DNA of 38,832 nt. Origin: Chthoniobacterales bacterium. GTDB taxonomy: Bacteria; Verrucomicrobiota; Verrucomicrobiia; Chthoniobacterales; UBA6821. A program made the translations under genes and the position numbers. The stretch is from positions 1 to 38,832 of the forward strand of contig JBIRBD010000002.1 in NCBI GenBank assembly GCA_044326465.1. The letters are read 5' to 3'. Below, piece by piece: positions 15,624 through 36,143 of the stretch. How positions within the stretch are numbered: position 1 is the first letter of the stretch; each line of letters starts with the position of its first letter. The notes beneath the pieces were generated by a model. That model worked only from the letters and a program-made list of their open reading frames with translations, did no database searches and was not told where the DNA came from.

Positions 15624-15655
15624 TATGATACATTTTTGATGTTGCTATTTTTTCA

Positions 15656-16141: not shown

Positions 16142-16146
16142 TAGAG

Positions 16147-16400: not shown

Positions 16401-16451
16401 GATTACCTGCCAACTACTAGCGGCTCAGATTAGAATTTCCATTAACGGCTC

Positions 16452-18227: not shown

Positions 18228-18313
18228 GCTTTTAAGTTAACCTAAAAACGTCAATGGATCGTGGCAAATTAACGCAATATGCTCAGCATCAAAATCATTT
18301 TTAGACTAAGCCC

Positions 18314-19813
18314 TTACGTTAATTTTCTCACTCCCATCACCGTTTTTAGGTCGCTGGCCGCAATTTCTCGATCGCTACTTTTCTCATGATGTCGATCGAT
18401 GATGATGGTGGCTATCTGAATAAGTAAAAGGCGTCGCTGAGTTTCATTAAGTGGATGCGTTGCTTCTAAAGAGACATTATAGCGAGCTTTTTCCGCTGTA
18501 TTAAGTTGGCTTTCGTTATTTTCAACTCCTAAAGTCGGATTAATGGGCAAACTCTTGCATCCGTTCATGCAATTGGCTCGCCTATCTTTAGGAAGTTTTT
18601 CTATTTCAGGATCTAGCGAATCTTGAAGAGGTGGAGCTTTCCTCTTCTCTAGACTGCTGGGCGGGTATAAACTCTTTTTCCACTCTTCCGTAAAAGGCCC
18701 AGTAATATTCCACTGAATTATTTTTGTGCCATGAATTAACCAATGGATGACAAGCAAGTATGTTTGACGGATGCGAGCAGCTGTTAGATTTTGGCGTTTA
18801 TTATGGCTGACTGTTTGGCTCCGATCATGCCAACGATATTGATAAAGATAATCAGGGATGAAGAGCAAAGGTTCATTAATAGCTGTTCTTAAAGCGAATT
18901 CATAGTCTTGGCAGCCCTCAAAGGTGCTATTAAAAATGCCAAGATCAGCATGAATATTTTTTTTGATCGCTTTGAGATGGTTTGCAAAATTATTAACGAT
19001 CAGATCACTTGTTTTTTCTGAACGTAGTCGCCACGAAAGAATATTTCCATGTTCGTCGATATCAATGGCACGCGAGCTAATAAAACGTATTGTTGGATTT
19101 TTCTGAATAGTTTGCGCTAGAACAGAAAAAACATTTGATTGGAGGCGGTCATCACAGTCTAGATGAAGAATCCACTCGCCTCGTGCGCGCTCAATGGCTT
19201 GATTTGTACTCTGGCAAATTCCGAGATTATTTTTATTCGTATGGAAAACTATTTTTTCCCCAAGTGCTTCCCCTGCTTCTTGAAGTAACTGCTTTGAATC
19301 AATCGAAGGGTCATCATTGACGATAAGAATTTCAACCTGAGTTGTGGGGCTGTGGCGGCAGGCAGTAGTAACAGACTCAATGCAACTTTTAAAAAATTGA
19401 AGATGATGATGAAAACAGATAAGGACCGTAAAACTTGGAGGAGGTGATGAAAAATTAGTTGATGAAATCTGCTGAGTTGTGAAAAGAAAATTTTTAGCAT
19501 CGACTTCAAGCTGACTAGAAGATTGATTCAAAATTTCTGCAGCCCACTTGCGCGATGATTCTTGTTGACGCGATTTAATCGGATTATATCCCATGCAAGG
19601 ATAGGCCAATGTAATACTTCCCTGGCAAAACCAACTCAAGAAGTGCACAACCTGATGAAGGATGCAGTGATATCTTGTTTGACGATCCTTCTGCTCGGAT
19701 AAATCAAGGCGCTGTAAAAATCCTGTTAACGGTACAATAATACGAGAAAGAATTTTCCTAATAAAGAGAGCGGCAACATGCCTGATCTTTGATGGGGAAG
19801 AACGGATAGTCAT
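18314..19813 (-). CDS. Family 2 glycosyltransferase (GT-A) with N- and C-terminal extensions of unknown function
   Basis: Central GT2 pattern: FTVLICFHHH...ILIVNDDPS...NLGICQSTNQAIERARGEWILHLDCDD. ATG start. Divergent from the main operon. Confidence 0.75.
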   Translation of the reverse strand: MTIRSSPSKIRHVAALFIRKILSRIIVPLTGFLQRLDLSEQKDRQTRYHCILHQVVHFLSWFCQGSITLAYPCMGYNPIKSRQQESSRKWAAEILNQSSSQLEVDAKNFLFTTQQISSTNFSSPPPSFTVLICFHHHLQFFKSCIESVTTACRHSPTTQVEILIVNDDPSIDSKQLLQEAGEALGEKIVFHTNKNNLGICQSTNQAIERARGEWILHLDCDDRLQSNVFSVLAQTIQKNPTIRFISSRAIDIDEHGNILSWRLRSEKTSDLIVNNFANHLKAIKKNIHADLGIFNSTFEGCQDYEFALRTAINEPLLFIPDYLYQYRWHDRSQTVSHNKRQNLTAARIRQTYLLVIHWLIHGTKIIQWNITGPFTEEWKKSLYPPSSLEKRKAPPLQDSLDPEIEKLPKDRRANCMNGCKSLPINPTLGVENNESQLNTAEKARYNVSLEATHPLNETQRRLLLIQIATIIIDRHHEKSSDREIAASDLKTVMGVRKLT

Positions 19814-19916
19814 AATAATTCGGTAGGTAATAATGCCTCTTCCTCTTTTTAGATTTCAAATTTAATCTTTGGATAATAGATTAAACTCTATTTTTTACAA
19901 CTTTCCTTGAATTGAA

Positions 19917-22169
19917 TTGAAAACTAGTTTGTTACATTTTCTCAGGATTGTTTTTTTAATACGCGCAGCCTTATTGAGGCACTTGTATCGTCCATCAAAA
20001 CATACTATCGCCGTTACTCTGGCTAGAGTTTCACAACAGAGTCAAAGAGAGAGACATGATATAAAAGCATTCCTTCGCGGATGGACTCACTATGTACCAT
20101 GGAACTTATTGCTCTTATTGCATATTAAACATGATTGGAAATTTGTTGAGGCACTGCCCTTGCTATCGAGGCTTAAGGATTGCTACATTCCTTCTGAAAA
20201 AGAGATTCTGTATCTTCCTAAAAAGATAGATTTGCTCTACGTTCCTTTTGGCAATTTTGCTGTTCCTAAAGCGCCTCCTTATCCTGTTGTTTTTTATTTT
20301 AGAGATATTGAGGATTATTTTTTTCCTGAATCTTTTTCTCTGCAAGAGCTTTCAAAAAAACGTAATGGGTATCGTTGTGCTAGGGTCTATGCCAGTCATA
20401 TAATTGTTCCTTCAGAATTTAGCAAAAAATCAATCAGTGCTTGTCTAGAAATTCCTGAAAAATATTTTTCGGTCATTCCTTCGCCTTGTAACACGTTCTC
20501 TTCTAAAAAGGAAAAACCAGCAAAGATAAATGATATTCCCTTTATTTATTACCCTGCTGAAAACAAGCCTCATAAAAATTATGACAGACTTTTTCAAGCT
20601 ATCACAAAAATAATAAACAAAGGATGGAAGGGATGTCTTGTTTGCACTGGAGAGGTTAGCAATAACACTAACGATTTAGAAAAATTAGCCCAACAAAACG
20701 GCATTCAAGATCATTTTGTTCATTTAGGAAAAATAAAGTCTGCTGAGATATCCTGGCTTTACAAGCATGCAGAGCTACTAATTTTTCCAAGTCTATTTGA
20801 GGGATATGCATTTCCTATTCTCGAGGCATTCGAGTCAAAGCTCCCTGTCGTATGCTCAGGCGTAACAAGCCTTCCTGAATTAGGGGGGGATGCTGTGCTT
20901 TATTGCAATCCCTTTGAGGTCGATGATATCGCCGAAAAAATTTGGATTTTATGGAATGATCGCAAGCTACGTGCTCAGTTAATTTCTCGTGGTAAAAAAC
21001 GCGCGCAACTTTTTTCAACAAAAAAAAATATTAGGCAGCACGCAGAGCTTTTTTCTCAACTTATTCAAAACAAAACAAGTAAAGAAGATCATAGGCCTGC
21101 TATTGGCCCTCTTCCAGAGATTAATCTCAATCTGATCGAAGATATTTATCGAAAGGCAGTAAATGCTGAAATTCAGCAGTATATTCCACCAAGAGATGAT
21201 TGGTTCTCTGTTATAAAGCAGGGAGGGGCAGAATGTAGTCTTAACCCGACTTTCGCTAGTCGGGATGGCGATCTTTTGCAATATGCTTGTTATAAAAAAG
21301 ATGGAGAAGTGGATGGTCCGGTCACATCATTGCCGGTACATTTTTTTACGATTGTTTATGATGGAATGCCTTTTATCGAAAAGCACCTAGATGTTTTTAA
21401 GCAACTGCCTTTTAAGTGGCATTGGCATGTTATTGAAGGTGCCGCAAAACCAGAAAAGACATCTTGGATATTTCAGAATGGAGGTCAATTGCCACTAGAT
21501 GCATCTTTTTTTAGTAACGATGGGACTAAGGAATATTTGGATAAAATAGCAGCAGAGTTTCCAAAGAATATCACCCTCTATCGCAAGAATAAATACTGGA
21601 AGGGAAAACTAGAAATGATTTCTGCTCCTATTGATTCTTTGCCTAAGCAAGCACTTCTCTGGGAAATAGATGTCGATGAAATTTGGAATGCTGATCAAAT
21701 CATAACGCTCGCAAATCAGTTTTTTCAAGAGCCTGCTCGAACAAGCGCTCTCTTTTATTGTCGGTTTTTTGTAGGTCCAGGTAGAGTGGCTGATAATATT
21801 GGATTATATGGCAATAATCCTTCTCAAGAATGGAGACGCGTATGGAAATATCGTGCTGGCGATTATTGGGAGGCACATCAGCCACCATCTCTTATGAGAA
21901 CTATGGAGAATGGAGAAAAACATAATGTTACCAACATCAATCCATTTACTCATGAAGAGACGTGGAAGATGGGATTAGTCTTCGATCATCTTGCTTACGT
22001 TACAAAAAAACAGTTGCAATTCAAAGAGACTTACTACGGATATTCAGGGGCAGTAGCGGCATTTGAAAAAATGTGTCAGGATGATGAGGAGGAATTTTTA
22101 GTTAATAAATATTATTCTTGGATCAAAGATCCTATCTGGGCTTTTCATGACAAAAAAAATGCTAAATAA
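19917..22169 (+). CDS. Two-domain glycosyltransferase: N-terminal GT4 (GT-B) plus C-terminal GT-A-like domain
   Basis: GT4 E-x7-E region: FPSLFEGYAFPILEAFESKLPVVCSGVTSLPELGG. The C-terminal half has FFTIVYDGMPFIEKHL, SNDGTKEYL and EIDVDEIW (DxD-like). The TTG start is uncertain. Confidence 0.7.
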   Translation: MKTSLLHFLRIVFLIRAALLRHLYRPSKHTIAVTLARVSQQSQRERHDIKAFLRGWTHYVPWNLLLLLHIKHDWKFVEALPLLSRLKDCYIPSEKEILYLPKKIDLLYVPFGNFAVPKAPPYPVVFYFRDIEDYFFPESFSLQELSKKRNGYRCARVYASHIIVPSEFSKKSISACLEIPEKYFSVIPSPCNTFSSKKEKPAKINDIPFIYYPAENKPHKNYDRLFQAITKIINKGWKGCLVCTGEVSNNTNDLEKLAQQNGIQDHFVHLGKIKSAEISWLYKHAELLIFPSLFEGYAFPILEAFESKLPVVCSGVTSLPELGGDAVLYCNPFEVDDIAEKIWILWNDRKLRAQLISRGKKRAQLFSTKKNIRQHAELFSQLIQNKTSKEDHRPAIGPLPEINLNLIEDIYRKAVNAEIQQYIPPRDDWFSVIKQGGAECSLNPTFASRDGDLLQYACYKKDGEVDGPVTSLPVHFFTIVYDGMPFIEKHLDVFKQLPFKWHWHVIEGAAKPEKTSWIFQNGGQLPLDASFFSNDGTKEYLDKIAAEFPKNITLYRKNKYWKGKLEMISAPIDSLPKQALLWEIDVDEIWNADQIITLANQFFQEPARTSALFYCRFFVGPGRVADNIGLYGNNPSQEWRRVWKYRAGDYWEAHQPPSLMRTMENGEKHNVTNINPFTHEETWKMGLVFDHLAYVTKKQLQFKETYYGYSGAVAAFEKMCQDDEEEFLVNKYYSWIKDPIWAFHDKKNAK

Positions 22170-22172
22170 AAA

Positions 22173-22847
22173 ATGAACAAGGCCTTTGTTATTAATCTCG
22201 ATACAGAGCAGGAAACTTTCGCAACCGTACAACAAGAGTTGTTGCCTTATGGGATTGAGTGTGAGCGTTTTATTGTGAAACGAGATAAGTACAAACAAAT
22301 AGGATGCACCATCAGTCATTTGAGTTTAATTGCTCAGGCAAAAGAAAAAAAATGGCCCTATCTTATTGTTATCGAAGATGACTGCATTGCTCGCGAAGCG
22401 ATGCATGAATGGCCGATCATCGCACAATTTTTACAACAAGAAAAAAATCGATGGGATCTTTTTTTAGGAGGAGCATTGTATGTGCATCCCAAAAAGCTAC
22501 ACACCAATTTTAAACCAAAATCAATGGAGATAGAAATGATTGAATGTCTGCATGCGGTAACAGCTCATTTCATTATTTATAATGACACTTCGTATGATCG
22601 ATTGTTGCAGTGGCATGATCTTCCAATGCCACTTGAGGAGAGGCCTATCCTTGATCATTTTTTTGAAAAGTGTAATTTTAAAATTTGGGTGACATCTCCT
22701 TGTCTTGCTTGGCAAAAGCCGCATCATGATAGTGACTTTACGGAACTTTTTGAGCATGCTGAGGGAAAGCTGCATTATTTTACTAAATCGATAAGAAGCT
22801 GCTTAAAATATCGTCTCTTTGGACGATGGCTAAGAACAATTTCATAG
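22173..22847 (+). CDS. Family 25 glycosyltransferase (LOS/LPS beta-glycosyltransferase-like)
   Basis: MNKAFVINLDTEQE...IGCTISHLSLI...YLIVIEDDC matches the GT25 pattern. Starts 3 nt after the upstream stop. Confidence 0.75.
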   Translation: MNKAFVINLDTEQETFATVQQELLPYGIECERFIVKRDKYKQIGCTISHLSLIAQAKEKKWPYLIVIEDDCIAREAMHEWPIIAQFLQQEKNRWDLFLGGALYVHPKKLHTNFKPKSMEIEMIECLHAVTAHFIIYNDTSYDRLLQWHDLPMPLEERPILDHFFEKCNFKIWVTSPCLAWQKPHHDSDFTELFEHAEGKLHYFTKSIRSCLKYRLFGRWLRTIS

Positions 22848-22975
22848 AAGGCAACGCAGAAAATTGATAATTACAGACCTTGTTCAATGGTATATCTTAA
22901 TAATAAAATCCTTGCTAACAATTTTATTTGGCCTTATAGGCTCAAACCGACAAGATAAGTCAGGAATTTACTCCA

Positions 22976-23848
22976 TTGAACACTTCATCAACAACTCATC
23001 ATTCTAATGCAGGCTGGACCACGGTTATTGAACCGCGCATTAGCCTTTTTCATATTCCTTGGAAAGAAATTTGGAATTATCGAGAGCTTGTTGGCAGAAT
23101 GGTTCATCGCGATTTTATATCGCAATATAAGCAGACGTTTTTTGGATCACTTTGGTATGTTATGCAGCCTTTGTTTACGAGTTTGATGTTTACACTAGTA
23201 TTTTCAAACATCGCCAGAATTTCTACAGGAGGTATTCCTCCTATACTTTTTTACATGTCGGGAACGGTCTGCTGGACCTATTTTTCAGCCTGTGTAAACG
23301 GAACAGCATCAACATTTATTTCAAATTCTTCATTATTTGATAAAGTTTATTTTCCACGATTGGTCGTTCCTATTTCTCAATTAATTGTAAATCTTGTTGG
23401 CTTTAGCATGCAGATGGCCATGTTTCTCGGATTTTATGCATGGTATTTCTGGCATGGATCCCCCATTACTATGGGATGGCGCATTATTGTATTGCCTGTT
23501 TTATTGCTTCAAATGGGTGCGCTGGGATTAGGCGTTGGGTGTTTTGTTTCGGCTATTACAACACGTTTTCGCGATCTCCAAATCTTACTAGGATTTTTTA
23601 TTCAACTCTGGATGTATGGAAGCTGCGTTGTTTATCCGATGAGCCTTGTTCCTCCTGGCATTATTCATACACTCTACCTGCTCAATCCTATGGTAGCAGT
23701 TATTGAAGGTTTTCGTTTTGCTTTTATGGGGCAGGGAACAGTGACGTTACTCCAAATTATCATTAGCTGCTTTGTTAGCATGGTGACGATTTTTGTAGGA
23801 GTTGTTTTATTTAATAAAACCGAACGGCTCTGCGTAGACATCCTGTAA
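22976..23848 (+). CDS. wzm: ABC-2 type polysaccharide export permease (Wzm/TagG/KpsM-like)
   Basis: EIWNYRELVGRMVHRDFISQYKQTFFGSLWYVMQP signature followed by about 6 hydrophobic segments. TTG start predicted. Confidence 0.85.
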   Translation: MNTSSTTHHSNAGWTTVIEPRISLFHIPWKEIWNYRELVGRMVHRDFISQYKQTFFGSLWYVMQPLFTSLMFTLVFSNIARISTGGIPPILFYMSGTVCWTYFSACVNGTASTFISNSSLFDKVYFPRLVVPISQLIVNLVGFSMQMAMFLGFYAWYFWHGSPITMGWRIIVLPVLLLQMGALGLGVGCFVSAITTRFRDLQILLGFFIQLWMYGSCVVYPMSLVPPGIIHTLYLLNPMVAVIEGFRFAFMGQGTVTLLQIIISCFVSMVTIFVGVVLFNKTERLCVDIL

Positions 23849-23858
23849 AATCTACGAC

Positions 23859-23886
23859 TCTTTACCCTTTACTCTTCACCCTTTAC
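23859..23886 (-). repeat. Heptad array GTAAAGG GTGAAGA GTAAAGG GTAAAGA (minus strand) in the wzm-wzt spacer
   Basis: Plus strand reads tctttac cctttac tcttcac cctttac, four exact 7-nt phases. Same family as 33-63. Confidence 0.8.
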
Positions 23887-23903
23887 TGCTTTTGCTCTCT
23901 CAG

Positions 23904-25106
23904 ATGTCTGAAGTCGTCATTAGAATAGAAAATTTAGCGAAGAAATATCGTCTCGGTGTGATCAATCGCAAGATGCTTGTAGATCAAATTGAGAGCTGGA
24001 TTGCGAGGAAGTTAGGGCGTCCTGATCCGCATGCAGGCGTTCATGAACACGCAACAGATCGCATGCCGACGCCCTATGATTTTTGGGCGCTACAAGATAT
24101 TAACTTAGAAATTAAAAAAGGGGATGTTGTTGGCATCATGGGGCGCAATGGATCGGGAAAGTCGACATTATTAAAAATTTTATCGCGTATTACGGCGCCG
24201 ACAAAAGGTCGTGTCTGTATTAAAGGTCGTGTGGCAAGTTTGCTCGAAGTTGGAACTGGTTTTAATTATGAACTCACGGGACGAGAAAATGTTTATCTCA
24301 ACGGAAGCATCCTTGGGTTAAAACAACGCGAGATTGATGCGCGTTACGCTAGTATTGTCGACTTTTCTGAGATCGCAGATTTTATGGATACGCCAGTGAA
24401 ACGCTATTCAAGCGGCATGCGCGTCCGTTTGGCTTTTGCCGTAGCGGCACATCTCGATCCCGAAATTTTAATCCTCGATGAAGTCTTGGCAGTAGGTGAT
24501 GCGAAGTTTCAAGAAAAATGCCTCAATCGCATTAGTGAAATACGTAATTCAGGAATCACTATTCTTTTTGTAAGTCACTCATCGAAAAGTGTTTTAGAGT
24601 TATGTACGCACGGTGTTGTCTTGCGCGAAGGTCGTATTGTGGCTTCTGGAACCGCTAGGGAGGCAACGGAACAATATTTGGAATCGCTGCATTTATCTCA
24701 TTCAGAAAACCTCATTCCAGGAATGCCTCAAAGTCGTATTGGCTTGCAGGCTGGGGCTCTTGCAAAAATGTTAACGCAGGCATTACCAGAAGGAAAAATT
24801 GTGTTTAATATTCCGATAGAAACTCCTGATGGTATTATTGTGATCGATGTTGGATGGGTGTCAGAAAGTAGAATGAAGACAATGAGGACAGAGCCAACCT
24901 GGGGAGGATCACCAGATATTGCTATTAATATTATTTCGAAAGACAAAGTTGAAGCTGATACTAAGGCTAATATTAATCGCTTACTAAGAGTTGGAGCATC
25001 AGAACCATGGATTGTCTATCCTAATGGAGTTATTGAGAGATTTAAAATTAAGGAAAGGGAATTTCTTATTCCTTGCGAAGTTAAAAATATTCATGACCTC
25101 TTGTGA
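23904..25106 (+). CDS. wzt: Polysaccharide ABC exporter ATP-binding protein (Wzt/TagH-like) with an atypical C-terminal domain
   Basis: Walker A GRNGSGKST, signature YSSGMRVRLAFA, Walker B ILILDEVLAVGD. The ATG at 23904 (MSEVVIRIENL) is preferred over the TTG at 23892. About 135 extra C-terminal residues. Confidence 0.88.
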   Translation: MSEVVIRIENLAKKYRLGVINRKMLVDQIESWIARKLGRPDPHAGVHEHATDRMPTPYDFWALQDINLEIKKGDVVGIMGRNGSGKSTLLKILSRITAPTKGRVCIKGRVASLLEVGTGFNYELTGRENVYLNGSILGLKQREIDARYASIVDFSEIADFMDTPVKRYSSGMRVRLAFAVAAHLDPEILILDEVLAVGDAKFQEKCLNRISEIRNSGITILFVSHSSKSVLELCTHGVVLREGRIVASGTAREATEQYLESLHLSHSENLIPGMPQSRIGLQAGALAKMLTQALPEGKIVFNIPIETPDGIIVIDVGWVSESRMKTMRTEPTWGGSPDIAINIISKDKVEADTKANINRLLRVGASEPWIVYPNGVIERFKIKEREFLIPCEVKNIHDLL

Positions 25107-26071
25107 AAATTTATGTTGCAGCTGCTTCACCTAGTAACACAAGGCAGTACAAAAAATTATTAGAGCTTTGGACGATTTCTTCCAAAAAGCATCAGATTTG
25201 TAATACGCCGGAAGAGGCTGATTTTATCATTATAACTGATATAGCTGGCCCTGGTTGGTTCAAAGATCTTCGCAATCACGCTGCTATCAAAAAGCCAAGT
25301 CAGTGCTTTGCTGTTTCTGATGCTGATTATCCGATGCCGCTCCTGCATGGAGTCTACACCTCTCATTCCAAGAAATTAAAATTTTCTTCTCGATTTAGAA
25401 CAGGAGCCTATAACCTATTTCCTGAAAAATCTAAAAATCTTATTGTCCAGCAATCAGCTACGAATGCTTACCTTGAGCCAAAAAATTTTCTTTATTCATT
25501 CATTGGTCAGGATAGTTCTTCTGTTCGGTTAATTTTGTTTAAGATGCTATCGAAAAAGAAAGATGTTCTTATTGTTAATTCAACAGAAAAATTTAATGCC
25601 TATCATTTAAAAGGAGAGAATCCCAAGCGTGAGCAACGATCCTATGTTAAAACGATCATAGAATCAAAATTTGCTCTCTGCCCTAAAGGCACAAGTGGAG
25701 CATCAATGAGACTTTTTGAAGTCATGCAACTAGGAGTTGCACCTATTATTATTTCTGATGAATGGATTCTTCCAAAAGGTCCTTTATGGCAGGAATTTGC
25801 CATTGTTATAAAAGAGAAAAATATTCATCAGATTGATAGCATTCTTCGGGACTGTGAAAATGAATACGCTATCATGGGAAAAAAAGCACAACTAGCTTAC
25901 AAAAGTTTTTTTGCTGATAATGTCTATTTTGATTACTTAATTAATCAGCTAATTGATATCAAAAAGAATCAAAAAATACCTGAGAAGTTTTTTTGGAACT
26001 GTAGAAATTTTATTGTTAAGTTCTGGATGTTTCAACGCAGATTAGGCCTGCCTTGCTTAGGACGTTACTAA
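25103..26071 (+). CDS. Exostosin-like (GT47-like) glycosyltransferase
   Basis: KFALCPKGTSGASMRLFEVMQLGVAPIIISDEW matches the exostosin C-terminal motif (CPxG...R..E....G..PV.IS). The GTG start overlaps the wzt stop (GTGA). Confidence 0.6.
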   Translation: MKIYVAAASPSNTRQYKKLLELWTISSKKHQICNTPEEADFIIITDIAGPGWFKDLRNHAAIKKPSQCFAVSDADYPMPLLHGVYTSHSKKLKFSSRFRTGAYNLFPEKSKNLIVQQSATNAYLEPKNFLYSFIGQDSSSVRLILFKMLSKKKDVLIVNSTEKFNAYHLKGENPKREQRSYVKTIIESKFALCPKGTSGASMRLFEVMQLGVAPIIISDEWILPKGPLWQEFAIVIKEKNIHQIDSILRDCENEYAIMGKKAQLAYKSFFADNVYFDYLINQLIDIKKNQKIPEKFFWNCRNFIVKFWMFQRRLGLPCLGRY

Positions 26072-26084
26072 AAGCTAAAAGCGT

Positions 26085-27895: not shown

Positions 27896-29030
27896 ACAAA
27901 TTAAAAAGTTCATTTTTCAGAAAAAAACATCGTCTCTCATTCGCTTATTTCCTAAAAATTCTTCACGAGGAACCGTTGTTATTAGTTATTTAACATGGCC
28001 TTTTTGTGAAGGCCATAACTCGGTTCGGGCTCGCGGACACACGAATGCTTTTGAAGTCGTTACTATTGCTGAAATTTATCAAGAGCTCGGCTACACTGTT
28101 GAAGTTGTCGATTACGATAACAATAATTATCTACCGCCAAAGGATTGTTCCCTGGCTATTGATCTGCATGGACAACTTGCGCGGTGGAATAAGACCCTTC
28201 CTAAAAATTGTCTGCGCATTCTTCATGCAACAGGTGCGCATTGGAGCTTCGCCAATGAGGCAGAGCAGGCTCGGCTTGCGGCAATAAAAAAACGTCGTGG
28301 TGTTGCTCTTGCTCCGCGACGTCAGGTGCCGCTATCACCTAGTGCAGAGCTTGCTGATCAAATTGTCGTTTTAGGAAATGAGTTCACAATGCAGAGCTTT
28401 GCTTTTGCTAATAAGCCTATTACTCGTATTCCGATTTCTTCTGCTTATGAATTTTCTTGGCCAAAAAATCGGGATTTTTCATTAGCGAAAAAAAAATTCC
28501 TTTGGCTTGGAAGTTACGGGATGGTGCACAAAGGTCTCGATCTTGCACTGGAAGCTTTTGCTCAAATGCCAGAATTGAGGCTTACTATTTGTGGACGTCC
28601 AGAAAAAGAAGAAGATTTTTTCAAGCTGTATGAAAAAGAATTATTACATACGCCTAACATTAAGCTTCATGGCTGGATCGATATGGCATCAACTGAATTT
28701 TTAGAAATCGCAGCTACTCATGCTGGAATCATTTATCCATCATGTTCTGAAGGTGGTGGGGGATGTGTAATTCATTGCATGCATGCAGGAATGATTCCGC
28801 TTTGCACGCGCGAAGCATCCGTTGATCTTCAAGATTTTGGAATGTTCATTAATGATGGAACCGTTGAGGCTGTCGTAGAGGCTGCAAGAAAAATTGCTGC
28901 GCTTCCGGATGAAGAAGTGGAACGTCGCGCGCGCTTCGCCTGCGAGCACGTACGCGTGCATCACACACGCGAGGAGTTTAAGAAAAACTATCGAAGCTTT
29001 GCAGTAAAGATGATAGAAACCATCAAGTGA
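27888..29030 (+). CDS. GT-B fold glycosyltransferase (GT4/GT1-like)
   Basis: FLWLGSYGMVHKGLDLALEAF...IYPSCSEGGGGCVIHCMHAGMIPLCT. The ATG overlaps the upstream stop by 8 nt. Confidence 0.6.
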   Translation: MIEQIKKFIFQKKTSSLIRLFPKNSSRGTVVISYLTWPFCEGHNSVRARGHTNAFEVVTIAEIYQELGYTVEVVDYDNNNYLPPKDCSLAIDLHGQLARWNKTLPKNCLRILHATGAHWSFANEAEQARLAAIKKRRGVALAPRRQVPLSPSAELADQIVVLGNEFTMQSFAFANKPITRIPISSAYEFSWPKNRDFSLAKKKFLWLGSYGMVHKGLDLALEAFAQMPELRLTICGRPEKEEDFFKLYEKELLHTPNIKLHGWIDMASTEFLEIAATHAGIIYPSCSEGGGGCVIHCMHAGMIPLCTREASVDLQDFGMFINDGTVEAVVEAARKIAALPDEEVERRARFACEHVRVHHTREEFKKNYRSFAVKMIETIK

Positions 29031-30094
29031 AAATACTATTCGATACCTATATCTATAAGCTGCAAATAACAGGTGGTATCAATAGATATATTGCAGAAAT
29101 TATTTCTGGGCTTCCTGAGAATTTTCATCCGTTTCTTTTTAAAAAAATTGAGAGAAAGCTCTGTGTTCCCAAGCATCCTCACCTCAAGAATTTTTGGATG
29201 CCCATCGACACGCGCTTTAGTCCATTTTTTATGCAGTGGAAATTGAAGTCGATGGATATTGTTCATCCATCCTATTATCAGATCTATTCATCACTCTCAT
29301 GGGATAAGATGCCATGTAAGGTCGTCATTACCGTCCATGATTTGATTATGATGCGTTTTGCAGATAGGTATGAAAAAAGCAGCAAAGTCATCAGTGCACA
29401 AAAAGCAGCCATTAAAAGAGCAGATCATATCATCTGTATTTCTCATTCTACGCGGAATGATTTGTTAGAAAAATTTCCAGAGTGTGAAGAACGAAGCAGT
29501 GTTATTCATTTAGCCTCTTCCTTGCCACAGCCTGATGGATCGTTTAGCAATCCTTTTGATAAACGCTATTTTCTTTTTGTGGGCGCACGCTCTTTTTACA
29601 AAAACTTTGAATTAACCGCTCGTGCTTTTGCTCTTCTCTATCAAAAATATTCTGACCTTCAACTTGTTGTAGTGGGTGGAAGTTTTAATGAAGAAGAAAA
29701 TAAATTAATCCACGGACTTGGAATTTCTGATGGGGTCAAGCTGGTAAAACATCCTGATGATTCAGAATTAGCTCTTCTTTACAAATATTCTGAAGCTCTT
29801 ATTTATCCCTCAGAATACGAAGGTTTCGGCTTGCCGCCGCTAGAGGCAATGAAAATGGGCGTTCCGGTGATTGCTTTAAACATCAGCAGTCTTCCTGAGG
29901 TTATTGGGGCAGGTGGAATATTAATTGATCCAGAAAAAGCCTCGCCGTATCTTCTAGCCGAGGCAGCAGAATCACTACTCACCTCGGAATCTCTTTGCAA
30001 GAGGCTTTCTGCTGCAGCGCTCCAACAAGAAAGTCAATTTTCTTGGAAAAAAACCGTTGATAAGACGGTTGATGTTTATAACGAGTTACAATAA
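29027..30094 (+). CDS. Family 4 glycosyltransferase
   Basis: FLFVGARSFYKNF...IYPSEYEGFGLPPLEAMKMGVPVIALNISSLPEVIG is a classic GT4 E-x7-E region. The GTG overlaps the upstream TGA (GTGA). Confidence 0.8.
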   Translation: MKILFDTYIYKLQITGGINRYIAEIISGLPENFHPFLFKKIERKLCVPKHPHLKNFWMPIDTRFSPFFMQWKLKSMDIVHPSYYQIYSSLSWDKMPCKVVITVHDLIMMRFADRYEKSSKVISAQKAAIKRADHIICISHSTRNDLLEKFPECEERSSVIHLASSLPQPDGSFSNPFDKRYFLFVGARSFYKNFELTARAFALLYQKYSDLQLVVVGGSFNEEENKLIHGLGISDGVKLVKHPDDSELALLYKYSEALIYPSEYEGFGLPPLEAMKMGVPVIALNISSLPEVIGAGGILIDPEKASPYLLAEAAESLLTSESLCKRLSAAALQQESQFSWKKTVDKTVDVYNELQ

Positions 30095-30103
30095 TAAATT
30101 TGC

Positions 30104-31069
30104 GTGTGTAAAAAAGCTCTTATCATTGGTGTCTCTGGTCAAGATGGCGCCTACCTTGCCAGGCTGTTACTAAAGAAAGGATATGAAGTTTATGGTACCT
30201 CGAGAGATCACGAAGCTTCTTCCTTCACTAATCTTAAAAAGTTACAAATTAAAGATCAGGTTCAGTTAAGGTCGATGACAGCCTCTGATTTTCGCAGCGT
30301 ATTAACAATACTGCAAGAGGTCGAGCCTGATGAAATCTATAATTTAGCAGGGCAGACTTCTGTTGGACTTTCTTTTTCTTGTCCCGTTGAAATGTTCGAA
30401 AGTATCTCGGTGGGAACCATTCATATTTTAGAATGTTTGCGACTGCTAAAACAAAAGGTGCGATTTTATAATGCGGGATCAAGTGAGGTTTTTGGAAATA
30501 CACTCAAGCCTGCTTGTGAGCAGACGCCATTTCAGCCACGAAGCCCTTATGCAACAGCAAAGGCCGCTGCCCATTATGCTGTTTCTAATTATAGAGAGGC
30601 CTACGGTTTATTTGCATGCACAGGGATCCTTTTTAATCATGAATCGCCATTGCGATCAGAGCGCTTTGTTACAAAAAAAATAATTTCTACTGCGGTGCGC
30701 ATTGCACGGGGTTCAAAAGAACGTCTTAAACTTGGTAACTTAGCTATTCATAGGGATTGGGGCTGGGCGCCAGAATATGTAGAAGCGATGTGGAAAATAT
30801 TACAGTATGAAATTGCTGATGATTTCATTATTGCGACAGGCCAGATGCATTCATTGGAAGAATTTATTCAAAAAACTTTTTCTCAGTTGGGACTTGAGAG
30901 TAAAGACCACGTCGACTCTGAGGCTTCCTTGTTTCGTCCTTCTGATATTGCAAAAAGCGTGGGTAATCCAACCAAGGCAGCAACGGTGTTGAAATGGAGA
31001 GCAGAAGTGCTATTGGATGAAATAGTGGCTTTATTGATAGAGGATGAAATAAAGAAAACTTCTTGTTAG
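30104..31069 (+). CDS. gmd: GDP-mannose 4,6-dehydratase, short ~320-aa form
   Basis: KALIIGVSGQDGAYLARLLLKKGYEVYGTSR, SPYATAKAAAHY (YxxxK) and GILFNHESPLRSERFVTKK are typical Gmd blocks. GTG start. Confidence 0.88.
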   Translation: MCKKALIIGVSGQDGAYLARLLLKKGYEVYGTSRDHEASSFTNLKKLQIKDQVQLRSMTASDFRSVLTILQEVEPDEIYNLAGQTSVGLSFSCPVEMFESISVGTIHILECLRLLKQKVRFYNAGSSEVFGNTLKPACEQTPFQPRSPYATAKAAAHYAVSNYREAYGLFACTGILFNHESPLRSERFVTKKIISTAVRIARGSKERLKLGNLAIHRDWGWAPEYVEAMWKILQYEIADDFIIATGQMHSLEEFIQKTFSQLGLESKDHVDSEASLFRPSDIAKSVGNPTKAATVLKWRAEVLLDEIVALLIEDEIKKTSC

Positions 31070-31078
31070 CGTTGCTGT

Positions 31079-32806
31079 ATGAATAGTCAAAAAATCAGCG
31101 TTCATTTTATGCCAGGCGATGGCAAAGGCTGGGCGTTAGATGAAGATCGGCGCCAGATGCGTGAAGCACTTAAAGGAATTATTTGCGAGACAACCCTTAT
31201 GCGGGCGCAGGTGCTTCATACACCTTTTTGGCAAGGGTTAAACTCGGTAGCTCCAGAAATTTTGAAGCAGGCTTTTATTATCGCCCATGCTGATAATCCA
31301 CCTTTTTTTTATCTTAAGCAGCCGGAATTTTTTCTTGGGCAGCAGCAGGTGGATCTTTGGATAGCACGTTCACTCGAAGCTCTGGAGCAGTTCCATTCAT
31401 TACGGCTTCCGGTAAAATATATTCCCTACACGATTGATCCGGAACTTTTCTTTCCGATCGCCGATAAAAAAGCATTACGTGAACGTTTTAACATTCCTCT
31501 GGATCGTTATGTTATTGCTAATTTTCATCGCGACACGGAGGGTGCCGATTTAGTAACGCCAAAATTACAAAAAGCACCGGAGCTCCTGTTGGCTATTCTA
31601 AAAAAACTCCAAACTCGTGGAGCCAATATCCATGTATTGCTCGCCGGCCCGCGTAGGCACTGGTTGCGCAAGGAACTGATGCGCGAAGGGATCCCCTTTA
31701 CCTTTGTTGGAAAAAGTGACATTGAAGGTGATGATTTTGGAATTAATATTCTGAATCGTGTTACGCTGAATGAATTAACGAACGCAGCCGATCTCTATTT
31801 GATTCCATCACGTTGGGAAGGGGGACCACAATCAGCAATGGAAGCAGCTGCCTGTCGGTGCAAGCTCATGAGTACGCCACTCGGTGTTGCACGCGATATT
31901 TTGGAACCAGCGTCACTTTTTCATTCAACGGAGGAGGCAGTTAAAAAAATTTTTGAAGATATTCAATGCAATAGCCTGCAATCAACTCTCGAACCTCAAT
32001 GGAAACGTTGGAAAAAATCACATACGACAGAATCCCTATTTCACGGCCTTTGTGAGCTCTATCGAGAACTTCCAAGTGATGTTTTGTTTCAAAGAAAAGT
32101 CGTTGCAAAAAACAGGTCGCTGGGAAAAGCCCCATGGCAGCAGGTAACGCATATTCTTAAAACAAGGCTTGGATATCAGTCTTTGCCAAAAAAAATAGGG
32201 TGGAATCATGCCCCTGGAAAAAATCGAGACCTCGATGCAGTGATGTTAGCTGTTGGGCAAGCATTCAAAGCACTTGGAATTAGCATTTGTCGTCCATCTG
32301 GAGTTGGTCTTGAATGTATAGGTTGGCCAACAGAAAAACTACCTCCGGCAAGATCAGGCTGTGTGCGCCTGCAATGGATAGTACCAGGTATGCCGATAGA
32401 AATTTTCTTTCAGGCTGATTTATTTATCACTCCATCGGTACAAGATATTCTCAATCTCCGGAGCGAAGGTTTCGGCCAGCCTGCAATCGTTATTCCATTT
32501 CCTATTGCGCGCGAAAAAAATAAAGAAGCTTCGCCCTTTGTTGTTCCTTTCGATGATAAGCATGCATCCATGAACATTTGGCGAGCATTAGCGGAGGGCC
32601 GTTCAGTCGTTTATCCAGAACATTTAGCTTATTACGAGCAGGTTTTTCATGGAGGACTTCCCTATAAAAATGAACCTGATCTTCCTGGCGTTCTTGCTTC
32701 AGCTCGTCAAAGTAATCTGGAACTTTCTATGCTGGCACGCATTCCGGTTATGAACGTAGCAACCAAATCACTCAAGAAGTTGCTAGCGGAGATTAATTTT
32801 TCGTAA
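31079..32806 (+). CDS. Large GT-B type glycosyltransferase with an additional C-terminal domain
   Basis: LYLIPSRWEGGPQSAMEAAACRCKLMSTPLGVARD is GT4-like. About 240 further residues are of unclear fold. Confidence 0.55.
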   Translation: MNSQKISVHFMPGDGKGWALDEDRRQMREALKGIICETTLMRAQVLHTPFWQGLNSVAPEILKQAFIIAHADNPPFFYLKQPEFFLGQQQVDLWIARSLEALEQFHSLRLPVKYIPYTIDPELFFPIADKKALRERFNIPLDRYVIANFHRDTEGADLVTPKLQKAPELLLAILKKLQTRGANIHVLLAGPRRHWLRKELMREGIPFTFVGKSDIEGDDFGINILNRVTLNELTNAADLYLIPSRWEGGPQSAMEAAACRCKLMSTPLGVARDILEPASLFHSTEEAVKKIFEDIQCNSLQSTLEPQWKRWKKSHTTESLFHGLCELYRELPSDVLFQRKVVAKNRSLGKAPWQQVTHILKTRLGYQSLPKKIGWNHAPGKNRDLDAVMLAVGQAFKALGISICRPSGVGLECIGWPTEKLPPARSGCVRLQWIVPGMPIEIFFQADLFITPSVQDILNLRSEGFGQPAIVIPFPIAREKNKEASPFVVPFDDKHASMNIWRALAEGRSVVYPEHLAYYEQVFHGGLPYKNEPDLPGVLASARQSNLELSMLARIPVMNVATKSLKKLLAEINFS

Positions 32807-32807
32807 A

Positions 32808-33755
32808 ATGAGACGCCCCATACCCTCACAACACAGGATCGCTATCACAGGCGGGCGTGGGCGCCTAGCTGGTTTGGTCGCCGCGTTTTTACGCGAGAGA
32901 GGATTTGAAGTGACGCTCTTTTCAAGAGTGGGTAGTGACGAATTTTGTGCACTTGAGGAACTCTTGCAGTCAAGCGCGATGGCAGAATATAGAGCTATCT
33001 TACATATGGCTTGGAGTAGCGTTCCTTTCACCAGCGAGCAAGATCCTGGATGCGAAGAGAGGGAAGATTTACCCCTCTTAAAAAAAATACTTCTGACACT
33101 CTCTTCTCTTAACTCAAATTCCTTGGAAGATCTTATTACTTCGAATGCCGAAAGTCCGGTTACAACCTTAGCATTTCCTCGATTGATTTTTCTTTCTTCA
33201 GCCTCTGTGTATGGAAATACAAGCGAAATAGCAGTCACTGAAACCTCTTCTTGTCAGCCTTTGAGTGGTTACGCGCGTGCTAAACTTGCAGCAGAGAAAA
33301 TAATTTTTGAGGATGCTGCTCTTCACTCTTCCTTCAACGCGCTGATTTTGCGTGTCTCTAATGTCATTGGATTTTCATCTGATCCAAAACGGCCGCAAGG
33401 AATCTTGCCTCGGATTTTTGCAGCAGCCCGAGAAAAACAAGCATTGGAAATTTGGGGAGATGGCTGTTGCAGCAAAGATTATCTTTGGATTGATGATTTT
33501 CTTACGGCCCTCGAAGCAGCCATAACGGAGCCTATAAGAGGTATTTTCAATATTGCCTCAGGACAAAATTTTTCTATTTCTGATTTGGTTTTGCTGGTTG
33601 AACAAAGTTGCAAGAGTCATGTCAATGTCACCTATCGTCCTCGTTATGCGTGGGATGTTGCCATTGCGCATATTGATGCCACGGCGTTTTCGAAGGCCAC
33701 AGGCTGGTGTGCGAAGGTTAATGTTGAAAAAGCGATTAAAGAAGGGAAGAAATAA
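32808..33755 (+). CDS. NAD(P)-dependent sugar-nucleotide epimerase/reductase (extended SDR), candidate partner of Gmd
   Basis: Rossmann motif IAITGGRGRLAG; catalytic SSASVYG ... YARAKLAAE (YxxxK). An unusual insertion of about 50 aa lies between the Rossmann core and the catalytic Ser. Confidence 0.7.
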   Translation: MRRPIPSQHRIAITGGRGRLAGLVAAFLRERGFEVTLFSRVGSDEFCALEELLQSSAMAEYRAILHMAWSSVPFTSEQDPGCEEREDLPLLKKILLTLSSLNSNSLEDLITSNAESPVTTLAFPRLIFLSSASVYGNTSEIAVTETSSCQPLSGYARAKLAAEKIIFEDAALHSSFNALILRVSNVIGFSSDPKRPQGILPRIFAAAREKQALEIWGDGCCSKDYLWIDDFLTALEAAITEPIRGIFNIASGQNFSISDLVLLVEQSCKSHVNVTYRPRYAWDVAIAHIDATAFSKATGWCAKVNVEKAIKEGKK

Positions 33756-33786
33756 CGACAAAGAGCACAAAGAACGTGGAGAGTTT

Positions 33787-35106
33787 GTGTGTGTGTTTCT
33801 CTCGCGTTCTTTGAGGCTATTCATTTTTTTCTCTCTGGTTATTGTTGGTCTCATGCAACAAACTTTCTCGTATTTAAAAGAAAAATTGCGCTTTTATGTC
33901 GATCTTCCAGCTCGTTTTTTCTTTCGATGGAAGCGTCGTAAAATAGAGCGTTCTCCTAAAAATCCCATAGCTATTGGCTTTGGTGGCGTTTTAGATCATC
34001 GCAAGATTATTCATGGTGGCGCTGTAAAGTTGTTGCCATTGCGAGCAGCGATGGGGAGTGGTGAAAAACTTTTTAATCTGCTCTACCTTGTCAGTAGCTC
34101 GCAGGCTCGTTTTTCAGAAGACCTCGTAAAACTTTGCCGTCGCCGTGGTATTCCTTTTGTCTGGAATCAAAATGGAGTCGGTTATGCAGGATGGGCTGGA
34201 TTCGAAGCAGAGCGGCACAATGGACCGATGAGAAGAATGCGTCGATTAGCAGACTATGTGATTTACCAAAGCGCCTTTTGTCGTGATTCTGCCGAGCGAT
34301 TTCTTGGGCCATGCAATGTGCCCCATGAAATTCTTTTTAATCCTGTCAATTTAGAAAAATTTTTCCCATTACAGGAGAGACCTCCCTTAGAGCCTGTTAG
34401 ATTGCTGACCTTAGGAACGCATGGCTATGCCGAGCGTGTGATTTCGACACTTCATGCATTAAAAATTTTATCGGATGCCGGATATTCCTGCAGTCTAACC
34501 ATTGCCGGAAAATGTCAATGGCATGCTGCTGAGCAGATGATTCACGAGGAGATAAAAAGACTTGGAATTACTCGGCAAGTGACCATTTTGCCAGCCTTCA
34601 CTCAGGATCAAGCGATAGCACTTTATCAGTCACATCATCTTGTGTTGCATCCAAAATATCTCGACCCATGTCCCACTGTTGTTGTCGAAGCGATGGCCAC
34701 AGGTTGTCCTGTTGTTGCTTCTGGTAGTGGAGGTCTCCCCGAACTTGTTTCTAAGAACCTGTATTCATCCTCTACTGAAGACCGCGAACAACTACGTCAC
34801 GGCAGTGCTCGCAGTATCACGGATGATCTATCCACTCAACTGCTCCGCGCTGGCGCTCCTTGTTGTTCATCGGTCTCAGCGACCATGAATACAGGTTCAA
34901 TGGAGTGTGCTTATCTCATTCCAGCTCCAGAAAATTGGGAAAAAATGATCACCCCAACGGGGGAAGAATTAGCAGCTGGCGTGATCTCTATTTTGCCTCG
35001 CTTTGCAGCCTGTGCTGCGGCCGCGCGTGCCCGCGCAGAAGAAAAATTTGATGAAAAAAAATGGGTGGCACGCCATAGAGAAATTTTTTTACAATTGTTG
35101 CGATAA
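33787..35106 (+). CDS. Family 4 glycosyltransferase with a possible N-terminal membrane anchor
   Basis: LVLHPKYLDPCPTVVVEAMATGCPVVASGSGGLPELV. The start is ambiguous: GTG at 33787 or 33793, or ATG at 33853. The track start at 33553 was rejected because it overlaps the SDR gene. Confidence 0.7.
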   Translation: MCVFLSRSLRLFIFFSLVIVGLMQQTFSYLKEKLRFYVDLPARFFFRWKRRKIERSPKNPIAIGFGGVLDHRKIIHGGAVKLLPLRAAMGSGEKLFNLLYLVSSSQARFSEDLVKLCRRRGIPFVWNQNGVGYAGWAGFEAERHNGPMRRMRRLADYVIYQSAFCRDSAERFLGPCNVPHEILFNPVNLEKFFPLQERPPLEPVRLLTLGTHGYAERVISTLHALKILSDAGYSCSLTIAGKCQWHAAEQMIHEEIKRLGITRQVTILPAFTQDQAIALYQSHHLVLHPKYLDPCPTVVVEAMATGCPVVASGSGGLPELVSKNLYSSSTEDREQLRHGSARSITDDLSTQLLRAGAPCCSSVSATMNTGSMECAYLIPAPENWEKMITPTGEELAAGVISILPRFAACAAAARARAEEKFDEKKWVARHREIFLQLLR

Positions 35107-35108
35107 AG

Positions 35109-36143
35109 ATGATGAAGCAATTACCCAGCCTTTCTGTGCTCATGACCGTTTTTAATGCGGAAAAATATTTAGCTGCCTCCATTGAAAGCATTCGTAATCA
35201 AACATTCCGTGATTGGGAGTTTCTCATTGTTGATGATGCTTCAACGGATCAGTCATTAGCCATTGCAGAAGCCTATGCAAGAATCGATGACCGTATTCGA
35301 GTGATTACAAATGTTCTGAATAAAGGCCAAACTGCTTCTCTTAATCAGGGTTTGCGAGAGACTCGTGGTTATTGGATAGCGCGACAAGATGCTGATGATA
35401 TCTCTCATCCTTTGCGATTTGAAAAACAATTAGAAAAATTTCGTATGATGCCAGAGCTTGTTTTGCTTGGAACAATGGGCTCTATGATCAACGAAAAAAA
35501 TGAATGTGTTGGTCTGCTTGATATGCCAATAACGCAACAGCTTATTTGTTGGAGTGCCCCCATTATTAATCCTTTCATCCACACATCGGTGATGTTTCAA
35601 AAAAAAATCATTCAACAATTAGGTGGTTATCACGAGTCATTTCGTATTGCTCAAGATTATGATCTTTGGGCGCGCGTTATGAGGTATTATGTGGTTGAAA
35701 ATCTTCCAGAGCGTCTTGTGAGTTATCGTCATTTGGAAACTTCACTATCGAAAACAGGACGGTCAACAACATTTAAGGAAGCAGAAAAAGTGTCAGAGCA
35801 GATGGAGGAAGTGGCCTTCAAGCGTTCTCTGCAGGCTGATGAGCGAAGGGTTATCGCTTCTTTTAGAGAAGGAATACTGCCTCTTTCAGAGGCGCCAGAT
35901 TTTTGGAAATGCTATCATTCGCTCGAATTTCTAATGAAAGGGCAAGGTCGGCTCCTTCTAAAAGAGGCTAGGAGATTAAGGGCTGTTTATCATCTCAAAC
36001 TCGCCGGAATTTTTGTAAACGAGACGCGGGCATTCTTAGTAGAAATTCTCGCCGCATTTTTTGCTGCGCCACTATTTACGGCGAAGTGGCTTTGGGAGCG
36101 AGTGAGCAGTAGTTCAGGCAATGCCCTCAACTTAAGGAATTAA
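35109..36143 (+). CDS. Family 2 glycosyltransferase
   Basis: LSVLMTVFNAEKYLAASIESIRNQTFRDWEFLIVDDASTDQS ... ARQDADD is a classic GT2 N-terminal pattern. Confidence 0.85.
   Translation: MMKQLPSLSVLMTVFNAEKYLAASIESIRNQTFRDWEFLIVDDASTDQSLAIAEAYARIDDRIRVITNVLNKGQTASLNQGLRETRGYWIARQDADDISHPLRFEKQLEKFRMMPELVLLGTMGSMINEKNECVGLLDMPITQQLICWSAPIINPFIHTSVMFQKKIIQQLGGYHESFRIAQDYDLWARVMRYYVVENLPERLVSYRHLETSLSKTGRSTTFKEAEKVSEQMEEVAFKRSLQADERRVIASFREGILPLSEAPDFWKCYHSLEFLMKGQGRLLLKEARRLRAVYHLKLAGIFVNETRAFLVEILAAFFAAPLFTAKWLWERVSSSSGNALNLRN

Follow-up and report, generated by a model that had tools for sequence, protein, structure and literature searches.

Does the run of glycosyltransferase genes that begins directly downstream of argS in an uncultured Chthoniobacterales bacterium amount to a pathway for making and exporting a surface glycan, and what would its exporter recognise? 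The genes occupy positions 18314–36143 of a 38,832-nt stretch of DNA (contig JBIRBD010000002.1, positions 1–38,832, GenBank assembly GCA_044326465.1), which we call the window. An open reading frame (ORF) map combined with Pfam places Wzm, Wzt, Gmd, an extended short-chain dehydrogenase/reductase (SDR) and 11 glycosyltransferase (GT)-type ORFs in this block; the gene list of a preliminary description, made from the sequence alone, agrees with Pfam and with the positions of all ORFs. From this content we consider it likely (probability about 0.8) that the block is an ABC-transporter-dependent surface-glycan locus with an O-antigen-like pathway. Structure prediction further indicates that Wzt, the ATPase of the exporter, ends in a Uma2/DUF820 fold and not in the canonical beta-sandwich carbohydrate-binding domain.

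Gene content and exporter

The block opens with a minus-strand GT2 gene, divergent from the 14 plus-strand genes that fill positions 19917–36143. Intergenic gaps among these 14 range from -112 to +128 nt, a tight packing that looks like an operon. With argS as the left border, the features are as follows.

16452–18227, plus strand: argS, last gene of rplKAJL-rpoBC-rpsB-tsf-ptsN-argS (Pfam tRNA-synt_1d, 326.6 bits)
18314–19813, minus strand: GT2, 499 aa, divergent from the rest (Glycos_transf_2, 58.9 bits)
19917–22169, plus strand: two-part GT4, 750 aa (Glycos_transf_1, 79 bits, residues 197–362)
22173–22847, plus strand: GT25, 224 aa (Glyco_transf_25, 34.6 bits, cut-off 24)
22976–23848, plus strand: Wzm, ABC-2 permease (ABC2_membrane, PF01061, 60.3 bits, cut-off 26.9)
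23904–25106, plus strand: Wzt, ABC ATPase, 400 aa (ABC_tran, PF00005, 84.2 bits, cut-off 25)
24705–25103, plus strand: predicted C-terminal domain of Wzt, Uma2/DUF820-like, PD-(D/E)xK fold, residues ~272–404 (AF2, Foldseek and profiles)
25103–26071, plus strand: exostosin/GT47-like, 322 aa (Exostosin_GT47, 65.5 bits, cut-off 33.4)
26085–26966, plus strand: GT-D-fold-like, 293 aa (GT-D-like, 34.8 bits, cut-off 27)
26855–27895, plus strand: second GT47-like ORF, 346 aa as the longest ORF (Exostosin_GT47, 24.9 bits, below the cut-off of 33.4)
27888–29030, plus strand: GT4, 380 aa (Glyco_trans_1_4, 35.8 bits)
29027–30094, plus strand: GT4, 355 aa (Glycos_transf_1, 117 bits)
30104–31069, plus strand: Gmd, GDP-mannose 4,6-dehydratase (GDP_Man_Dehyd, 346 bits)
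31079–32806, plus strand: large GT4-type protein, 575 aa, opening a second module (Glyco_trans_1_4, 38.5 bits)
32808–33755, plus strand: extended SDR, nucleotide-sugar epimerase or reductase, 315 aa (Epimerase, 90 bits)
33853–35106, plus strand: GT4, 417 aa, in an ORF open from 33553 (Glycos_transf_1, 63 bits)
35109–36143, plus strand: GT2, 344 aa, last gene of the block (Glycos_transf_2, 111.8 bits)

Five GT families are represented (GT2 twice, GT4 five times, GT25 once, GT47-like twice and GT-D-like once), and 10 of the 11 GT-type ORFs pass the Pfam gathering cut-offs. None of the 11 contains predicted multi-span segments, Wzm being the sole polytopic membrane ORF of the block, and no Wzx flippase or Wzy polymerase stands beside these co-located cytoplasmic glycosyltransferases. 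When tested against hidden Markov model thresholds, both exporter calls passed (60.3 versus 26.9 bits for Wzm, 84.2 versus 25 for Wzt), and together with matches to the Aquifex aeolicus subunits this upholds the Wzm/Wzt-dependent architecture first proposed for the block. In the PDB, Wzm comes closest to A. aeolicus Wzm (6m96_B, E = 1e-13), with mycobacterial Wzm and TarG next. The Wzt nucleotide-binding domain, approximately residues 57–269 of a 404-aa ORF that is open from 23892, best matches A. aeolicus Wzt (6amx/8dku, E = 2e-69), followed by TagH/TarH and mycobacterial Wzt/RfbE. Its top NCBIfam models, TagH (E = 4e-60) and galactan-Wzt (E = 5e-56), both remain under their equivalog cut-offs, as expected for a non-equivalog member, and the NCBIfam KpsM match, at 51 bits, lies below its cut-off of 300. 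Over 120 Wzt clusters share 65–80% identity across the full ~400 aa, and those with a taxon name are metagenome-assembled genomes (MAGs) of Chthoniobacterales, Terrimicrobiaceae or Verrucomicrobiae; by homology, Wzt belongs to a verrucomicrobial subfamily and the transporter is routine in the lineage. No exact-sequence match to the 404-aa Wzt ORF or to the last GT2 was found, and a PHROGs search added nothing to the family assignments.

The assignment of Gmd is secure on sequence similarity (PDB 2z1m, E = 4e-91; the Pseudomonas aeruginosa enzyme 1rpn, E = 5e-83), with an NCBIfam gmd score of 317.6 bits lying below the equivalog cut-off of 415. On the strength of Gmd alone, the product would contain a 6-deoxyhexose. 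The SDR holds GxxGxxG and YxxxK motifs and resembles GalE more than a reductase: NCBIfam gives 90 bits for GalE versus 26.5 for Fcl, and the PDB gives E = 1e-17 for GalE-like entries versus 4e-8 for Rmd (6x3b). Orthologues 51–55% identical to it lie between the same GT4 genes in three related loci (L089–L091), where no gmd is adjacent. The preliminary description had made the SDR the partner of Gmd; both genes are indeed present, but since the best match is of GalE type and three relatives have the SDR without gmd, we rejected it as a proven partner, and a pairing of the two is at most possible. In the common polysaccharide antigen (CPA) locus of P. aeruginosa (rmd-gmd-wbpW-wzm-wzt-wbpXYZ), gmd, wzm/wzt and GT4-type transferases likewise share one operon-like cluster. 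The window differs from it in having no demonstrable Rmd and no wbpW/manC, in carrying 11 GT-type genes of five families where CPA has three GT4 genes, and in the C-terminal domain of Wzt.

The C-terminal domain of Wzt

What lies behind the nucleotide-binding domain of Wzt? Pfam gave no match to the isolated C-terminus even at E <= 5: Wzt_C (PF14524) was not detected, and the Pfam Uma2 model itself does not detect the domain either. The AF2 model of full-length Wzt has a confident alpha/beta C-terminal domain with no beta-sandwich, and a domain-only model (27 homologues) reached a pLDDT of 89.7 and a pTM of 0.85. When this domain was compared with the PDB by Foldseek, all seven matches at E <= 0.001 were Uma2/DUF820 'putative restriction endonuclease' structures (top structures 1wdj, 9y1l, 3ot2 and 6okh; E 3e-7 to 5e-5, TM 0.64–0.71), and no Wzt chain was among the 50 matches listed. 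Searching the PDB with a sequence profile of the domain retrieves these four structures again, at E 5e-5 to 6e-4. In a library of 1.84 billion proteins this profile matched 896, of which 139 at E <= 1e-10, mostly stand-alone proteins of 130–230 aa; six of the matches examined (profile E 1e-16 to 1e-19) carry Pfam Uma2 (PF05685) above its cut-off. A word-indexed protein search with the profile returned just 7 fragments. Given the missing PF14524 match, the alpha/beta model and the Foldseek result, a canonical carbohydrate-binding domain was rejected.

The domain lacks a Glu that is conserved in Uma2 and belongs to the putative active site. This Glu, part of the motif 'aPD..(V/I)E(I/V)xS', occurs in 9y1l, 3ot2 and 6okh; the window has Asn instead (SPDIAINIIS), and across 27 members of the Wzt-fused family the position is N, S, G, F, L, Y, A, C, Q or E. 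Because this Glu is replaced in the window and unconserved in the family, the domain is predicted to be catalytically degenerate, and nuclease activity is unlikely. That fold and profile both match 'putative restriction endonuclease' proteins would fit an active nuclease in a defence- or DNA-related fusion, but the motif argues against it, as does the fusion of the domain to a membrane-transporter ATPase, always within glycan loci, and we hold such a nuclease to be very improbable. Besides the fold, the domain shares with Uma2/DUF820 proteins (PF05685; TT1808 1wdj, 3ot2, 6okh, 9y1l) the 'aPD...S' and 'E-x-W' motifs. It differs from them in being fused to an ABC ATPase and in having invariants of its own, three Trp residues of which one falls in an 'RTEPTW' segment. 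Mean identity is 48% for the C-terminal domain versus 80% for the nucleotide-binding domain; the former is kept in Wzt homologues down to ~55% identity, and homologues below ~58% mostly align via the nucleotide-binding domain alone.

How does this compare with characterised exporters? The Escherichia coli O9a/O8 and Raoultella O12 systems have the terminator WbdD and a Wzt carbohydrate-binding domain (Wzt_C, PF14524). They resemble the window in their two-domain Wzt and large multi-domain GT4 proteins, and differ from it in that the window yields no PF14524 match at E <= 5 and no methyltransferase/kinase terminator domain. The closest solved relative of both subunits is A. aeolicus WzmWzt (6an7/6oih/6m96; full length 7k2t/8dku), whose Wzt also has ~400 aa, an N-terminal nucleotide-binding domain and an extra C-terminal domain of ~130 aa; similarity to the window protein nevertheless ends with the nucleotide-binding domain (query residues 57–266). 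The A. aeolicus C-terminus is a carbohydrate-binding domain that recognises a modified chain terminus, and Wzt domains of this kind in characterised systems read a chemically modified chain terminus (PMC9445017). The window has neither such a domain nor a methyltransferase/kinase terminator, and some relatives carry methyltransferases.

For the Uma2-like domain itself, a non-catalytic role would fit best, as a substrate-sensing or recognition, dimerisation or regulatory module. We tentatively suggest, as a possibility well short of even odds, that the verrucomicrobial Wzt subfamily swapped the beta-sandwich for a dead Uma2 domain that serves substrate recognition or gating. If true, this would link export to chain completion, or to a conserved primer or lipid feature, in a manner not described before, and would give a Uma2-type domain its first assigned role in the cell. 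The Wzt-Uma2 fusion is a testable departure from textbook cap recognition by the Wzt carbohydrate-binding domain. No literature linking Uma2 or DUF820 with Wzt was found. A 699-aa protein of the representative library (P0182) combines an N-terminal Uma2 with a GT4 domain, a second and independent Uma2 fusion to glycan machinery.

Host lineage and conserved modules

To which lineage does the locus belong? Upstream of the block the window carries rplK-rplA-rplJ-rplL, rpoB, rpoC, rpsB, tsf, a PTS-EIIA(Ntr)-type gene (ptsN) and argS, and it has the order rpoB-rpoC-rpsB-tsf-EIIA(ptsN)-argS in common with at least 10 relatives. In the 10 kb upstream of argS of at least 10 Spartobacteria MAG loci, RpoB is 87–93%, RpoC 87–88% and RpsB ~80% identical to the window proteins. 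When ArgS was searched against prokaryotic genomes, one for each species, 580 relatives were found, and the best 80 of these 580 are Verrucomicrobiota, save one MAG without a taxon name; the closest are Chthoniobacterales/"Spartobacteria" MAGs (61–71% identity), then Terrimicrobiaceae, Verrucomicrobiales and Akkermansia, with no Chlamydiae among the best 80. By these homologies the window belongs to Chthoniobacterales ("Spartobacteria", Verrucomicrobiota), a freshwater or soil-type Verrucomicrobium.

The preliminary description had seen a chlamydia-like genome instead, and in it an O-antigen or capsule pathway that would be notable since Chlamydiae make only rough lipooligosaccharide. Its impression that the core genes are of Planctomycetes–Verrucomicrobia–Chlamydiae (PVC) type was sound, as Chthoniobacterales and Chlamydiae both belong to the PVC group, and the locus architecture is real. 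A chlamydial host was nonetheless rejected as extremely improbable: beyond the ArgS and RpoB relationships and the identical gene order, every named homologue of Wzt and of the SDR is from Verrucomicrobia. Because the lineage was misread, the significance claimed for the locus falls away. Such loci are routine in Verrucomicrobiota, the Wzm/Wzt pair and most of the GTs recurring across many contigs of the lineage, and gene content points to an ordinary ABC-transporter-dependent glycan locus, with a pathway common in Verrucomicrobia and with the C-terminal domain of Wzt as its one unusual feature.

This recurrence was followed in the neighbourhoods of three Wzt loci (L083, L085, L087) and in 80 metagenome contigs, where wzm-wzt always lies within a GT-rich cluster, and, for the SDR, in the loci L089–L091. 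Two conserved modules emerge. Module 1 consists of a divergent GT2 followed by wzm-wzt-[variable insert]-(GT47)-GT-D-GT47-GT4-GT4-GT25, and has the same order in L092, L095 and L096 and partially in L083 and L085. Module 2 consists of GT4(575 aa)-SDR-GT4-GT2 and is found in L090 and L091 and more loosely in L089, at 51–66% identity, its terminal GT2 being matched in L089 and L091 alone. In the window the two are fused, with gmd at the junction and with GT25 and the 750-aa GT4 before wzm instead of behind it. Across all 89 related loci (L083–L171, including 10-kb flanks) gmd has no counterpart, the sole gene of the block of which this is true. The loci most like the window (GCA_049314455.1 contigs 25 and 7; Ga0114975_10000614; GROS21 scaffold_18) have Wzm/Wzt at 74–83% identity and share the accessory genes and their order. 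Related Chthoniobacterales and Verrucomicrobia loci differ in having the modules on separate contigs or in separate contexts, never with gmd and never beside argS. Since L083 and L090 lie on different contigs of one MAG (GCA_049314455.1), the modules are not shown to be adjacent there. Chthoniobacterales is an abundant soil and freshwater group, for which the window offers a compact reference locus with two lineage-conserved modules joined. No literature on ABC-transporter-dependent glycan assembly in Chthoniobacterales was found, and the Verrucomicrobia O-antigen papers are generic.

Relative to L083, L085, L087 and the module-1 loci, Wzm is 65–83% and Wzt 67–79% identical, compared with ArgS identities of 68% in the MAG holding L083 and 57–59% in Terrimicrobiaceae, so that Wzm/Wzt conservation exceeds that of ArgS in comparable taxa. 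Among the GTs of module 1, orthologues of the first GT2 (47–56% identical) precede wzm in divergent orientation in L083, L085/086, L092, L093 and L095; those of GT25 (62–66%) end the module in L085, L092, L095 and L096; and those of the GT-D-like protein are 54–58% identical in L083, L085, L092, L095 and L096 and 43% in L087. The first GT47-like protein (25103–26071) has an orthologue solely in L092 (57%). The second has orthologues at 54–60% in L083, L085 (two tandem copies), L092, L095 and L096, and those in L083 and L085 bear precomputed PF03016 matches. Its start is uncertain in view of a 112-nt overlap with the GT-D-like gene (26855–26966). By tblastn, similarity over the N-terminal extension persists across the ~110-nt overlap in L095 (4500–4608) and L096 (5361–5469), not in L092; the overlap is either a conserved long one or a mis-called start. 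The 380-aa GT4 is 67–68% identical to orthologues in L085, L092, L095 and L096, and the 355-aa GT4 57–59% to those in L092, L095 and L096.

Over its full length, the 750-aa GT4 shares 52% identity with a 754-aa protein of L083; an incomplete copy in L097 reaches 48%. Its N-terminal half is a GT4 (GT-B fold), and its C-terminal ~370 aa, in which a DxD-like 'EIDVDE' was noticed by eye, are unassigned: there was no Pfam (E <= 5) or PDB match, PDB sequence and profile searches giving chance nanobody matches. In module 2, the 575-aa GT4 is 55–66% identical over its full length in L089, L090 and L091. Orthologues of the following GT4 (52–61%) align from residues 104–114 of the ORF that is open from 33553, in agreement with an ATG start at 33853, and those of the last GT2 (L089, L091) are 57–60% identical. 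The extra regions of the 750-aa and 575-aa proteins have no detectable family (Pfam, E <= 5); as multi-domain GT4 proteins, both are candidates for a polymerising or chain-length function.

Between these conserved parts, the variable inserts of related loci hold GT32-like and GT11-like genes, methyltransferases, glf, ugd, rml and sulfotransferases. In L085, wzm and wzt are separated by a 23S-rRNA-intervening-sequence-protein gene (PF05635, 9543–9896), and a gene for an AbiEii toxin (18905–19774) stands among the GT genes. L087, a Terrimicrobiaceae locus with a Wzt of the same subfamily, carries rml, two sulfotransferase, asparagine-synthase-like and GT61-/GT8-type genes (11228–19826), preceded by a GtrA-fused GT2 and PMT_2-like membrane proteins; this gene content hints at a sulfated, rhamnose-containing glycan that would also be modified in the periplasm.

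Is the block then a genomic island, recently inserted downstream of argS from another lineage? The preliminary description had called for a comparison of synteny at this point. Conserved synteny with Chthoniobacterales MAG loci does end at argS: relatives that share rpoB...argS lack the block there and carry unrelated genes instead (in three loci tmk, holB, an amino-acid kinase and others), none matching the window's downstream genes. An identical ArgS was found on just two other contigs, both of 2 kb and both breaking off ~70 nt past the gene, a small hint of local variability, and GC ranges from 0.35 to 0.45 across the block genes. Against an import, the nearest homologues of almost every gene come from Chthoniobacterales or elsewhere in Verrucomicrobia and match at least as well as ArgS does, and the block resembles the adjoining core genes in GC and in GC3 (0.29–0.38, compared with 0.26–0.33 for the core genes). 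Scans for tRNA genes, Rfam families and repeats at the borders found no tRNA, insertion sequence element, integrase, transposase or flanking direct repeat. Since downstream synteny also differs among the relatives themselves, rearrangement within the lineage suffices and accounts for the position more simply. An import from outside the phylum is unlikely, and we regard a recent island of foreign origin as improbable; homology and gene order instead favour two modules inherited within the order. The idea of a hypervariable glycan site downstream of argS was also rejected, given the three relatives with unrelated genes (tmk, holB) at that place. The two short contigs that share the ArgS, L081 and L082 (Logan SRR21875704 and SRR21875703; ~2 kb each), break off just at the start of the glycan block, which suggests an assembly break at a strain-variable junction.

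Proposed assembly, export and nature of the polymer

How would these genes work together? In the pathway that we favour, by analogy with known systems, the glycan would be built on a polyprenyl-phosphate carrier at the cytoplasmic face of the inner membrane, with the initiating enzyme encoded elsewhere. Soluble GT-A/GT-B enzymes (GT2, GT4, GT25, GT47-like and GT-D-like) would assemble the chain, to which Gmd would contribute a 6-deoxyhexose derived from GDP-4-keto-6-deoxymannose. Wzm2Wzt2 would then move the finished lipid-linked chain across the inner membrane. Ligation to lipid A-core, giving an O-antigen-like polysaccharide, would most probably follow; the alternatives are a capsule-like glycan or one anchored to a lipid in some other way.

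Several points weigh against this O-antigen-like pathway. Pfam and NCBIfam scans agree with the preliminary description that the window has no initiating phosphoglycosyl transferase, no manB/manC for GDP-mannose supply and no WaaL-type (Wzy_C) ligase gene. An initiating transferase of WecA/WbpL/WbaP type is missing from the six related loci inspected as well, and no chain terminator (methyltransferase or kinase domain) was recognised in the window. The carrier, the acceptor and the control of chain length are for this reason assumptions. Nor can the SDR be taken for the reductase needed to finish a GDP-6-deoxyhexose pathway, and without one the fate of the Gmd product is conjectural. Expression of the genes and production of a polymer are sequence-based predictions, and the role of the Uma2-like domain is putative. 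Finally, conservation of Wzm/Wzt above a housekeeping enzyme is unusual for transporters of serotype-variable O-antigens and may be a sign that the envelope polymer is a conserved one.

This last point leads to the likeliest of the alternatives, in which the product would be no variable O-antigen but an envelope polymer conserved within the lineage and similar in function to mycobacterial galactan or wall teichoic acid, or else a capsule or a protein-linked glycan. Mycobacterial galactan and wall teichoic acid are exported by conserved Wzm/Wzt- or TarGH-type transporters, and TagH/TarH and mycobacterial Wzt/RfbE are the next-best relatives of the window's Wzt after the A. aeolicus protein. Such a polymer would also agree with a Wzt that has no O-antigen-type carbohydrate-binding domain, with a transporter that outdoes ArgS in conservation across genera, and with at least eight accessory genes whose order is conserved. 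On the other hand, the best structural relatives are proteins of the A. aeolicus O-antigen transporter, GT25 is a family associated with lipopolysaccharide, and loci around the same Wzt differ in their sugar-nucleotide genes (rml, ugd/glf) and sulfotransferases. The window has no glycerol- or ribitol-phosphate genes, and it differs from group 2 (KpsMT) capsule systems in having neither KpsE/KpsD-type partners nor KpsC/KpsS-type linker enzymes. We consider a conserved envelope polymer, capsule or protein-linked glycan somewhat unlikely, and prefer the O-antigen-like pathway. A transporter conserved at or above housekeeping level, flanked by variable sugar-nucleotide genes, suggests recognition of a conserved part of the glycan or of its carrier.

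Some features around the block are of minor interest. A 38-nt imperfect inverted repeat (71% complementary) has one arm (18240–18277) in the gap between the convergent argS and GT2 genes and the other (18314–18351) overlapping the 3' end of GT2; it is possibly a shared argS/GT2 terminator, although a consensus terminator scan did not call it. Promoter and terminator scans gave fewer sites than in shuffled controls. Right after the block lies a minus-strand ORF of 663 aa (36345–38336) with no predicted membrane segments and the lowest GC3 of the window (0.236); searches of Pfam, NCBIfam and PHROG gave no match for it, and none of the related loci retrieved has a homologue. Near the window end follows a minus-strand ORF of 128 aa (38405–38791), whose N-terminus is hydrophobic and resembles a signal peptide and which matches no family; Pfam at E <= 5 gave nothing for either ORF. 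At the other end, the sole RNA gene of the window by ARAGORN and Rfam is a tRNA-Arg(CCG) (604–677, minus strand). A two-domain PLD/NucT-like protein (928–1929) just precedes two adjacent, plus-strand, half-size chromate-transporter CHR genes (1939–2526 and 2533–3093; PF02417/TIGR00937), a split ChrA pair.

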